From contig CM102283.1 of the NCBI GenBank assembly GCA_046563655.1, positions 4,340,001 to 4,404,000 on the forward strand: 64,000 nt of DNA. Reading direction: 5' to 3'. Below are positions 41,575 to 44,975 of this stretch, piece by piece. The stretch comes from Yuukianura sp. NJ FZ-2021 (Eukaryota). Every line of letters begins with the position of its first letter. Position 1 is the first letter of the stretch. Below the pieces are notes generated by a model. The model ran no database searches. It saw nothing but the letters and a program-made list of their open reading frames with translations, and had not been told where the DNA came from. The position numbers were made by a program, and so were the translations under genes.

Positions 41575-44500
41575 TTAAAGTTCGTAATGTTTATAATACT
41601 CCTCCACAATGTCAAAGTTTCGATTTGCTTCAACTGTGGCACTTTGGAAGTCGCATTCTTCATTTTTTTGCCAAATTGGATGGCAACGGAAAAGGATCGA
41701 TGTACTTGCCCGTTCAAAGGCATCACGAATGGTAAGGTGTCCACCTAAATCCAAAACATACAAGTTACTATTCTGGTGAAAACTCAAACTTTCAAAAACC
41801 CTTCTACTCTACACGTGCTATTTCTCCATAAAAGAGAAAAAAGCTACTCACTACCTCCTTGCTTCCTGAAAAAACAGGGAATTTCTTTTTTGACAGCAAA
41901 AAAGCGGAGAATTTGAAAGTGCGCCGCAACCAGGCGTTCCGCCAGAAGAATAGTTTGCACAAATAAGAAAAGAAAAGTGAACTATACATAACAACATACT
42001 AGTGCATGACTTTCCTACGAGTAGACGATAGTTCACAGCCCTTTTTCGTGCTGAATAAAAATCGCTGATTTTTAGAAAAAAATAATTTTAATCTCCAAAA
42101 CTACTTCCGGAACATGTTCTTCCATATTTTGAAACGGCAAGTGACAGGTGAGTGTGTGGTTCAACTGCGTAATTGATTTTTTGCTAAGCAGAGAACCAAG
42201 CCCCATGCCAATTGCCTTTCCTGTCTCACAAGCAGAGTTTTTTTTACCCACACTTGCATTACAACTGACCTTTGAAATCCATTTTGACCCAGAAGCAGGT
42301 GACCTAGGGTCACACATTACACACAAAAGTTGTTCCCCTTGATGAGAGGAACAACTTTTGTAGAGGTCATTTTCCGGGTTACCAGGTATAAAACCGGTTG
42401 ACCTTGACCTTTGACCCGGAAGGAGTTGACACCCGGGGGCCATATTCAATAGTGACCAAGCCCGGGTCATGACATGGTCACTGGTGAAAACCGGAATCAA
42501 ATCGGACCAGTAGTTTCTGAGATAATTAATCCGGACAGACAGACAGACGGACAGACAAACCTCTTTTATCATAATACTATTATAATAAACGATAAATCAT
42601 AACACTTAAAACTTACAATATACGTTAAAGTTATAAACGTTAAAGCTTATAATAGACGATAGAAGTTGTAAAACCTCAAGTAAAAGCAAACTATTGTTTC
42701 GGCGGTGACACCTGCATGCCGCACATTTTCAAATTCTCCGCTTTTTCGCTGTCAAAAAAGAAATTCCCTCTTTTCTCAAGAATGGAAGGAGAGAGTGAGT
42801 AGCTTTTTTTCTCTTATGGAGAAATAGCACATGTACATGAGAGGGGTTTTTGAAAGTGAGTTTTGATCTGACTAGTACTCCTACTCACCAAAATCAATGC
42901 TTTTGCAAAGTCTCGCAAGATTATTCACTGACGTTTTCAAGGGACCGGAACGAAAGCTTGCGGTTAAAGCGCTTTCAAATGTGAGCTTCACAAACTCCGT
43001 TCTCTCCAAATTTTTGTCTTGCAGGCGCTGGCTTAGAATGTCAATGCTTAAGTTCGGCTTATCAACCTTTCCAGCGATGGCCAATTGGCAAAGTGTGAGA
43101 CCCAACACAATGCATGTAGCCAATGTACTTAGTCTTGCTTTACGCGTCTTGCCCACTTGCTTTGGGAGTTCACTCAGGTTCTTCGGAGGCTATTCCACAA
43201 TAAATTAGTATAATCCAAATTTCGGCGGGAATTCTTTGAATATTTACCAATATGGTGGACGTGTATGCAGAGTTGACTGTCGTGGCATGTACGAGGAGAT
43301 CGCCCATGCCCGGCGGCAAATCACTGAACTTGGGTGCTTCTGTTTGCATTTTCCCAAACATGTACGACTGCACTACAGTCATTGTGTTTGTGGTCAATGT
43401 GCCTGTCTTGTCTGAGCAAATCGCAGTTGCATTTCCCATAGTGTCACAAGCATCCAAGTGTCCAACAATGTTGTTGTCTTTCATCATTTTCTAAAAACCA
43501 AAACAAAAAAAATCAAAATCAAATTCGAAATTCAAGTTTAACTAGAATTGTTTAAAAAAATTGTGATACCTTGACGGAATAAGCAACGGAAAATGTAACC
43601 GCGAGCGGAAGGCCTTCTGGAACAGCTACGACGAGAACAGTGATACCTTTATCCTGAATTTTGGCTTTGACATTCTCGATGGCATCGGAAGGCTCAACTT
43701 CCAGAGTGATGGTCTTTCCAGTCAAAGTTTTCACGAAGATCTGCATGCCTCCACGAAGACGAAGGACGAGATGGAGGGTAGATTCCTTCTGAATGTAGTA
43801 ATCAGATAGAGTTCGTCCGTCCTGGAGCTGCTTACCGGCAAAGATCAATCTCTGCTGATCTGGTGGGATTCCCTCTGGAGAAAATCAATAAAATATGTTA
43901 TGATTGCCACAAAAATAAAGTAGTTGACCAATTTTGAAATAGAAACTTACCCTTATCTTGAATTTTAGCCTTCACGTTTTCAGTGGTATCCGAAGACTCC
44001 ACCTCTAACGTGATGGTCTTTCCTGTCATCGTCTTTACGAAGATCTGCATGCCTCCACGAAGACGAAGGACTAGATGGAGGGTGGACTCCTTCTGGATGT
44101 TATAATCAGAGAGAGTTCGACCGTCTTCCAGCTGCTTTCCGGCGAAGATCAATCGCTGCTGGTCTGGTGGGATTCCCTCTGCAAAAATCAAGTAAATATT
44201 TTATACCTGTCATAAGCACCAGAAATGTAATCGATTAATTGTAAACCAAGACTTACCCTTATCTTGGATTTTGGCCTTTACGTTCTCGATAGTGTCAGAA
44301 GGCTCGACTTCTAAGGTGATGGTCTTGCCAGTTAGAGTCTTGACAAAGATCTGCATTCCACCTCGGAGACGAAGGACTAGATGAAGAGTGGACTCTTTCT
44401 GGATGTTATAATCAGCGAGCGTTCGTCCGTCTTCCAGCTGCTTTCCGGCGAAGATCAATCGCTGCTGGTCTGGTGGGATTCCCTCTGACAAATTCAAACA

Positions 44501-44975
44501 AACATTTATTGAATGTCAATCTATTAAAAATACTGGACTTTATAACAAAGCTTACCTTTGTCTTGTATTTTAGCCTTCACATTCTCGATGGTATCGGATG
44601 GCTCAACTTCCAAGGTGATGGTCTTTCCAGTGAGGGTCTTGACGAAGATCTGCATACCGCCACGAAGACGAAGGACGAGATGGAGTGTCGATTCCTTCTG
44701 GATATTGTAGTCCGACAAAGTTCGCCCGTCTTCAAATTGTTTGCCAGCGAAGATCAATCGCTGCTGGTCTGGTGGGATTCCCTCTGAAAAAAATAAAACA
44801 AATAAGTTAGTGTTGTGTATTTTCCGTAGTGATAGCAACGTAAAGGAAGTATTCATATTCAAATCAAATGTGTACCTTTGTCTTGAATTTTTGCCTTCAC
44901 GTTCTCGATCGTGTCCGAAGGCTCGACATCGAGAGTGATCGTCTTTCCCGTGAGTGTTTTCACAAAAATCTGCAT
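41575..44975 (-). CDS. chimeric polyubiquitin::PMCA fragment::unknown gene or pseudogene
   Basis: Four ubiquitin units plus a 33-residue partial unit, with an intron at the same site in each full unit, run in frame into [18 protein letters not shown]...|KMMKDNN...[23 protein letters not shown] (PMCA). Exon 43189-42889 follows, then a phase-compatible candidate last exon 41744-41575. Confidence 0.8.
41779..42864. mobile_element. element with ~165-bp imperfect TIRs and a nested HINE-like fragment (~42266-42560)
   Basis: 41780-41943 is roughly the reverse complement of 42700-42863. The inner segment (GTTGACCTTGACCTTTGACCCGGAAGGAGTTGAC...GACAGACAGAC) matches 39060-39360. Confidence 0.7.

Follow-up and report, generated by a model that had tools for sequence, protein, structure and literature searches.

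A chimeric polyubiquitin-PMCA locus with an orphan 3' tail, probably a young DNA-level duplicate with recruitment, in Yuukianura sp. NJ FZ-2021

Structurally heterogeneous duplicates are thought to be a main raw material from which new genes arise. In C. elegans and Drosophila, both chimeric duplicates and partial duplicates with recruitment are known, with Hun and fog-2 among the examples named in the excerpted text of one source (PMC3449122). Natural ubiquitin fusions include ribosomal-protein fusions as well as the diverse fusions of Guillardia and Bigelowiella (PMC6332867). Here we describe a locus on the minus strand of a 64,000-nucleotide stretch of DNA from Yuukianura sp. NJ FZ-2021 (GenBank assembly GCA_046563655.1, contig CM102283.1, positions 4,340,001 to 4,404,000 of the forward strand; hereafter the window), in which a polyubiquitin array runs in frame into a fragment of a plasma-membrane Ca-ATPase (PMCA) and from there into an orphan tail (Table 1). 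The locus is probably a chimeric duplicate of young age, restricted to one lineage and formed at the DNA level, with recruitment of additional sequence. It is a tidy, real chimera with an unusual 5' partner, belonging to a known type and calling for no new mechanism.

Compared with the partial duplicates with recruitment, as they are presented in the excerpts of PMC3449122, the chimera is alike in being DNA-mediated, in retaining introns and in losing homology to its donor inside the open reading frame (ORF), which would be completed by unique, donorless sequence of the new site; it also shares with them its young age and restriction to one lineage. It differs in that two pieces of unrelated donor type, polyubiquitin and PMCA, are combined with probably recruited sequence in one frame, and in carrying at its 5' end a tandem ubiquitin array, the products of which would be cut off post-translationally. 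In the terms of that source, the locus is read as a chimeric duplicate with recruitment, not as a three-parent fusion. Natural ubiquitin fusions resemble it in having ubiquitin in frame upstream of an unrelated protein. However, in the fusions covered by the excerpts of PMC6332867 the ubiquitin is whole and its GG precedes the partner, which is freed intact, whereas in the chimera the partner would keep 33 residues of ubiquitin. The natural fusions are, moreover, conserved across taxa, in contrast to the chimera, of which no second example was found in the protein collection or, judged by titles, among the papers listed in a literature search (8 of 10). Indeed, none of the 120 protein matches listed fuses both halves, each of them covering one part of the query, the ubiquitin 40% or the PMCA 60%, and the eight matches inspected (six with 93-98% cover, out of 16 listed with at least 93%, and two others) are plain PMCA exons containing the fourth transmembrane helix (TM4). 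The human UBBP4 locus, in the portion of PMC7066184 consulted, is an expressed pseudogene that encodes ubiquitin variants and is likewise of polyubiquitin type, with few replacements and the C-terminal GG kept, so that conjugatable variants would be possible in both cases; unlike the chimera, it is not fused to foreign coding sequence. As for PMCA itself, a P-type ATPase of type IIB, the match of the 3' part of exon 5, exon 6 and the 5' part of exon 7 is specific and comprises the PEGL motif of TM4 and the DKTGT motif, but the A domain and nine of the ten membrane helices are missing from the chimera, as is the larger part of the N and P domains, and near-invariant residues have been replaced. 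A P-type ATPase needs all its domains, and the fragment cannot act as an ion or calcium pump.

The eight exons of the locus (44975-41575) join into a single frame of 1803 nt, consisting of 600 codons and a TAA stop with no internal stop codon. All seven introns are of the GT..AG type, with lengths of 92, 71, 78, 76, 79, 58, and 1144 nt. A preliminary description of this locus had been made from the letters alone, and its statements on the sequence were all correct, on the minus strand, when set against the spliced frame, Pfam, a PDB search, and tblastn. The ubiquitin and PMCA matches lie far outside the range of chance. Just upstream of exon 1, at 44989-44987, a cag was noted by eye as a candidate acceptor of an intron in the 5' untranslated region.

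Table 1. Coordinates of the exons, junctions and other features of the chimeric locus, and of conserved genes in the window.
Feature	Positions	Strand	Description
Exon 1	44876-44975	minus	ATG and ubiquitin unit 1 residues 1-33
Exon 2	44556-44783	minus	Ubiquitin unit 1 residues 34-76 and unit 2 residues 1-33; bounded by cag before and gtaag after
Exon 3	44257-44484	minus	Ubiquitin unit 2 residues 34-76 (S57A) and unit 3 residues 1-33
Exon 4	43951-44178	minus	Ubiquitin unit 3 residues 34-76 and unit 4 residues 1-33 (L8M, P19S, I23T)
Exon 5, whole	43570-43874	minus	Ubiquitin part and PMCA part
Exon 5, ubiquitin part	43648-43874	minus	Unit 4 residues 34-76 (E51Q, N60Y) and truncated unit 5 residues 1-33 (T22A); Pfam ubiquitin
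Junction A	43644-43647	minus	4-nt GGTA overlap: ubiquitin exon end and intron start equal the parent PMCA exon
Exon 5, PMCA part	43570-43647	minus	Second half of TM4, 26 aa, PEGL motif; tblastn
Exon 6	43248-43490	minus	Start of PMCA P domain, DKTGT (43412-43398), beginning of N domain; 81 aa
Exon 7, whole	42889-43189	minus	PMCA part and orphan part
Exon 7, PMCA part	43145-43189	minus	15 aa ending QVGKT; tblastn reaches 43151
Junction B	~43145/43144	minus	End of PMCA-like sequence, start of orphan frame
Exon 7, orphan part	42889-43144	minus	85 aa; basic stretch, then hydrophobic segment 43132-43073
Intron 7	41745-42888	minus	1144 nt; mostly foldback/MITE-like element 41766-42877
Exon 8	41575-41744	minus	Last 55 codons of orphan tail and TAA stop (41577-41575)
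SecY/Sec61-alpha exons	15654-16241		Conserved animal gene
RabGAP-TBC exons	21150-21689		Conserved animal gene
Fascin exons	30469-30885		Conserved animal gene
C2H2 zinc-finger exons	7210-7746		Conserved animal gene

Four complete ubiquitin units of 76 residues lie in a single frame, each with an LRLRGG end immediately before the Met of the next, in the head-to-tail arrangement of polyubiquitin genes. The Pfam ubiquitin family (PF00240) matched exon 5 with an E-value of 2.8e-25, and tblastn recovered all the ubiquitin units; within the window, ubiquitin is confined to the array. A phase-1 intron follows Lys33 in each of the four full units, and unit 5 stops at residue 33. Along 43875-44875, the intron found at this same site in every unit is short and AT-rich. 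Since every unit has its own short intron at the same position, the array appears to have been amplified as an exon-intron unit of ~300 nt. Two features set it apart from polyubiquitin genes with identical units and a complete last unit that carries at most a short C-terminal extension: unit 5 runs into PMCA sequence after residue 33, and the units differ from each other. Taking unit 3 as the reference, nine replacements were counted in 337 residues, each a singleton in one unit (E16D and L50F in unit 1; S57A in unit 2; L8M, P19S, I23T, E51Q, and N60Y in unit 4; T22A in unit 5), with only unit 3 free of replacements and unit 4 carrying most of them (five). Synonymous codon differences nevertheless dominate over replacements between units (25 vs. 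1 for units 2 and 3, 32 vs. 7 for units 1 and 4); the array was therefore long under strong purifying selection and has gained its replacements since. Animal ubiquitin is almost invariant, and replacements of this sort would be unexpected in a polyubiquitin gene that is functional in an animal.

The second part of the frame is clearly of PMCA type. In the PDB search, exon 6 aligned end to end with residues 449-529 of human PMCA1 (E-value 3e-25) and with residues 428-508 of PMCA2, whereas SERCA and Na,K-ATPases reached only ~1e-7, so that the similarity is PMCA-specific. When two full-length PMCAs were used in tblastn, PMCA-like sequence was found in the window only at 43647-43570, 43490-43248, and 43189-43151. 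The piece thus comprises ~121 residues, from TM4 to just past DKTGT, of a pump of ~1200 residues, and falls short of the complete domain set (A, P, and N domains and ten membrane helices). Its portion in exon 5 showed 88-92% identity to two arthropod PMCAs by tblastn, and matched the Pfam E1-E2_ATPase family with an E-value of 0.003, under the family cut-off. Among the 120 best database matches, the highest identities were 70-73% (at best 73%, for exon 6), all of them to arthropod sequences. The PMCA matches stop where the exons do, after ...SVK and ...IL.

Support for the joins at the DNA level came from four sequencing runs of one sample (X1 to X4), from which k-mer contigs were built separately from the assembly and placed on 42600-43950; sixteen RNA runs with a word share of 0.05-0.06 were left aside. 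Contigs of X1 and X2 cover 43603-43713, across junction A, with no differences and depths of 135 and 120. Junction B is spanned, again with no differences, by contigs covering 42865-43302 (X1) and 42806-43353 (X2 and X3), the depths of which (120, 119, and 12.5) equal those of the flanks. Both joins drawn in the preliminary description are thus crossed by read-derived DNA contigs, and misassembly is unlikely.

The same contigs revealed a second PMCA copy outside the window. One X1/X2 contig matches the locus up to 43647 and continues upstream as PMCA coding sequence, not as ubiquitin, and this upstream coding sequence is not present in the window. The paralogous copy was also found in X3 record 20, which corresponds to 43230-43353 (exon 6 and 18 nt of intron 6) with six differences in 124 nt; in X3 record 21, mostly intron 5, with three differences and two gaps in 102 nt; and in X2 record 13, again mostly intron 5, with two differences and one gap in 69 nt. 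Overall, it is ~95% identical to the PMCA piece in both exon and intron. Because this identity includes introns, the piece is a recent DNA-level partial duplicate rather than a product of retroposition. Indeed, a processed retrocopy is ruled out, as the DNA still contains four ubiquitin introns and two of PMCA, and intron 5 is homologous to that of the paralogue. Both the DNA-level origin and the young age that had been proposed are therefore upheld, the former by the introns kept in the ubiquitin array and in the PMCA piece, and the latter by the presence of so similar a paralogue in the reads of the same sample. Regarding other ubiquitin genes, the high-depth pieces of X4 that fall on the array are only 44-59 nt long, with 1-2 differences, too short to date the duplication. 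Their interpretation as a recent parent array was dropped, given that within this very locus the units themselves scarcely differ over some stretches.

At junction A (G43647|G43646 T43645), unit 5 reads into TM4 without an intron. The other four ubiquitin units read G|GTA at the matching point and the parent PMCA also reads GGTA there, so that the join lies within a 4-nt microhomology (GGTA, 43647-43644), as would be expected of non-homologous or microhomology-mediated joining. In the fragments inspected, ordinary PMCA genes carry TM4 mid-exon, and the break on the PMCA side is therefore exonic. The earlier proposal that the switch falls exactly at the usual intron position holds for the ubiquitin side, which breaks at the intron donor, but not for the PMCA side, which breaks inside an exon.

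The 3' part of the frame consists of 141 codons after QVGKT (85 aa in exon 7 and 55 in exon 8) and contains no Met codon. Its hydrophobic segment has a 19-residue Kyte-Doolittle mean of 1.99. The GC content of the tail (0.43) is exon-like when compared with that of the local introns (0.26), yet it is near the window average, and a frame opened at a random start in the window stays open for at least 141 codons in 1.6% of 200,000 trials. The two tail exons were searched singly, and neither belongs to a Pfam family. In the PDB, exon 7 had no match and exon 8 had one with an E-value of 1.1, taken as chance. No homologue was found among proteins of near length, nor among 1.84 billion representative proteins at E <= 0.001. 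The best Atlas scores of the two exons were 0.79 and 0.90, both to unnamed clusters, with recognition values of 2092 and 1727, under the level of most real families. No recent second copy of the tail is visible in X1 or X2 either, because 42865-43302 forms a single unbroken contig at flank depth. A third parent locus had been postulated for this portion; lacking a second copy in the read contigs, a homologue and a Met codon, the tail does not bear out a chimera of three parents. It looks like either recruited local sequence or the body of an orphan gene, already resident at the site, whose start has been lost, and is probably recruited local sequence rather than a third parent.

Intron 7, which interrupts the tail, is largely occupied by an element resembling a foldback or miniature inverted-repeat transposable element (MITE), with inverted ends of ~190 nt (41766-41958 and 42686-42877) that are 84% identical. 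Part of its interior (42283-42558) recurs at 39079-39362 and 52737-53023, and DNA depth rises over the end of the element, as expected of a repeat. Its ORF of 174 aa had no Pfam match. The direct repeats flanking the locus (41429-41545 and 46620-46721) were considered as the ends of a capturing element and rejected, since they are only 75% alike over 115 nt. Capture of Helitron or Pack type is unsupported, as no terminal structure was found.

Run X4 is labelled 'DNA?', yet it behaves as RNA; its contigs give no expression level. X4 has no cover over introns 4 and 5 or over 43354-43490, to which no weight was given. Record 25 of this run (718 nt) matches 43353-43248 and then 43189-42886, leaving out precisely the 58-nt intron 6 (43190-43247), whose ends are GT..AG on the minus strand. 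At the loose end of this contig, before 42886, stands the sequence with which exon 8 begins, which means that the 1144-nt intron 7 has also been removed. The joint of exons 6, 7, and 8 is absent from X1, X2, and X3. These exons, and hence junction B, are thus joined in RNA as predicted, and the candidate final exon of the preliminary description is part of a transcribed and spliced PMCA/tail sequence. Junction A is bridged by X4 record 26 (765 nt), which matches 43601-43700 with no differences and includes 54 ubiquitin and 46 PMCA letters. Beyond 43700, inside ubiquitin unit 5, this contig continues for 664 letters unlike the window: its 30 visible partner letters had no match in the 64 kb at up to three mismatches and share no 12-mer with it. 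The X1 and X2 DNA contigs pass position 43700 without interruption, and none of the listed DNA loose ends falls at this point. Three letters at the joint (43697-43700) are common to both sides, and the joint can be placed right after the AG at 43699-43698. It may represent a cryptic acceptor for an outside exon, a library chimera, or a DNA copy missed by the contigs. Junction A is thus present in RNA, but the idea of a single transcript from the polyubiquitin ATG is not supported, since no listed RNA contig joins units 1-4 to the tail.

The constraint on the PMCA piece was assessed against 94 full-length PMCAs (at least 900 aa), mostly from insects, among the 120 best matches. At the 85 columns that are at least 95% conserved, the chimera deviates 11 times, and six of these deviations fall at columns invariant in 93 of 93 or 94 of 94 sequences. 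One of the 11 (V to I, column 2) is common to the parent copy. At another of them, position 43282, the chimera has Thr where the parent PMCA copy has a conservative residue. Together, the ubiquitin and PMCA replacements indicate relaxed constraint. Because they affect otherwise invariant positions of both partners, the most likely status of the locus is that of an expressed pseudogene or a proto-gene without established function. The functional novel protein that had been anticipated is not what this pattern suggests, as the replacements argue for relaxed constraint instead.

According to the explanation that we consider probable, a copy or remnant of a polyubiquitin array (four units and 33 codons) would have been severed at the splice donor of unit 5 and joined, through the GGTA microhomology, to a partial genomic PMCA copy that begins mid-exon in TM4, includes two introns and ends just past DKTGT. 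The PMCA piece would then run in frame into unique local sequence, whether a resident orphan gene minus its start or recruited non-coding DNA, which would supply the last 141 codons, one further intron and the stop. Polyubiquitin precursors are cleaved after Gly76. If translation started at the first ATG, cleavage by deubiquitinases behind each Gly76 would release four ubiquitins, three of them variant, leaving a remainder of 296 residues made up of ubiquitin 1-33, with an incomplete fold, the PMCA fragment of ~121 residues and the orphan tail. In this remainder, which may insert into the membrane or be degraded, two segments are hydrophobic (19-residue hydropathy means, 1.91 and 1.99).

Several observations weigh against this explanation. 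The parent polyubiquitin locus was not seen in the read contigs, and the array may be the original locus rather than a copy. Some of the PMCA deviations may be lineage-wide, the comparison set being mostly insects, and the intact 1803-nt frame with all its splice sites could mean selection for the ORF, not decay. Among the listed RNA contigs, none links units 1-4 to the tail, and the sole contig over junction A departs at 43700. Finally, the DNA runs come from one sample, which is possibly the source of the assembly, and are not independent of it. This last point, together with the repetitive nature of ubiquitin arrays and the existence of paralogous PMCA sequence in the same genome, would also fit an assembly artefact, with a false join between unrelated reads from polyubiquitin, PMCA and a third locus. 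Such an artefact is nevertheless highly improbable: the contigs of two DNA runs cross each junction without differences and at flank depth, the RNA-like run crosses both, and frame and splice sites are coherent over the two joins. That the locus is instead a functional new gene seems doubtful, though less so than any of the other alternatives weighed here. The promoter and array of polyubiquitin would act as an expression cassette with a self-cleaving leader, yielding ubiquitin variants plus a novel membrane protein with the two hydrophobic segments whose means are given above. The 600 open codons, the canonical splice sites of all seven introns, the splicing of exons 6-7-8 in the RNA-like run and the occurrence of junction A in RNA are in agreement with this view, and there is a precedent in human ubiquitin pseudogene-like loci, which, according to the consulted portion of PMC7066184, can encode conjugated variants. 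It is difficult to reconcile, however, with replacements at positions invariant in 93-94 of 94 PMCAs and with nine more in ubiquitin. Furthermore, the PMCA piece is non-autonomous and begins partway through a transmembrane helix, the fold of ubiquitin 1-33 is incomplete, no listed RNA contig extends from units 1-4 to the tail, and no homologue of the chimera occurs among the 120 listed protein matches.

The behavior of X4 record 26 admits a further alternative, in which the tail belongs to another transcription unit and an outside exon is spliced, either in cis over >19 kb or in trans, to a cryptic acceptor in unit 5 (AG 43699-43698). The product would be a partner-Ub(17-33)-PMCA fragment-orphan tail protein, and the four upstream ubiquitin units would constitute a separate truncated array. 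We consider this unlikely. The acceptor context is weak, with no clear pyrimidine tract, and an intron of >19 kb spanning other genes would be odd next to local short introns of 58-92 nt. In addition, the same picture would arise from a library chimera or from a DNA copy that the contig builder had dropped, and the partner is visible over 30 letters only. In favor of the outside exon are the exact match on 43601-43700 followed by 664 letters unlike the window, the absence of the 30-letter loose end from the window, the DNA contigs of X1 and X2 that continue through 43700 with no loose end listed, the three shared letters before 43697 that let the joint sit right after an AG, and the 10 visible codons of the partner, which are open in the ubiquitin frame. 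A combination of these last two scenarios, that is, a newborn gene whose array provides promoter and self-cleaving translational leader for an ORF of three sources, and whose tail is also exonised by a distant unit through the cryptic acceptor in unit 5, appears more unlikely still, although it does not reach the improbability of an artefact.

The window is otherwise an ordinary piece of animal chromosome, with exons of SecY/Sec61-alpha, RabGAP-TBC, fascin, and C2H2 zinc-finger genes (Table 1). On the minus strand, the chimera is closely followed downstream by a tandem array of ~8-10 copies of a 44-nt unit (40531-40981). Further away, at 35220-37046, the minus strand carries a Lys/Ser/Thr-rich ORF of 608 aa with internal repeats and no Pfam family, opposite which a frame of 441 aa was found on the other strand. 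The upstream neighbor on the minus strand (47848-49707) consists of long Ser/Thr/Glu-rich ORFs with an EGF-like module (FXa_inhibition, E-value 1.6e-07, just under the Pfam cut-off), and looks like a mucin-like secreted or membrane protein.

Young examples of chimeric duplicates are useful when breakpoints, microhomology, retained introns and transcript evidence are all visible, and in this locus the 5' part is a polyubiquitin array, which in principle offers strong expression and a built-in leader cleavable by proteases. If the locus is not under selection, it would be a clean expressed chimeric pseudogene, of a kind probably mis-called as polyubiquitin or PMCA by automated annotation. If it were a newborn gene with a tail also used by a distant unit, one young rearrangement would feed two chimeric proteins and variant ubiquitins into the cell. 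And if the locus is under selection, it would represent a natural test of how part of an essential pump, together with sequence that had not been genic before, can be tried out as protein.

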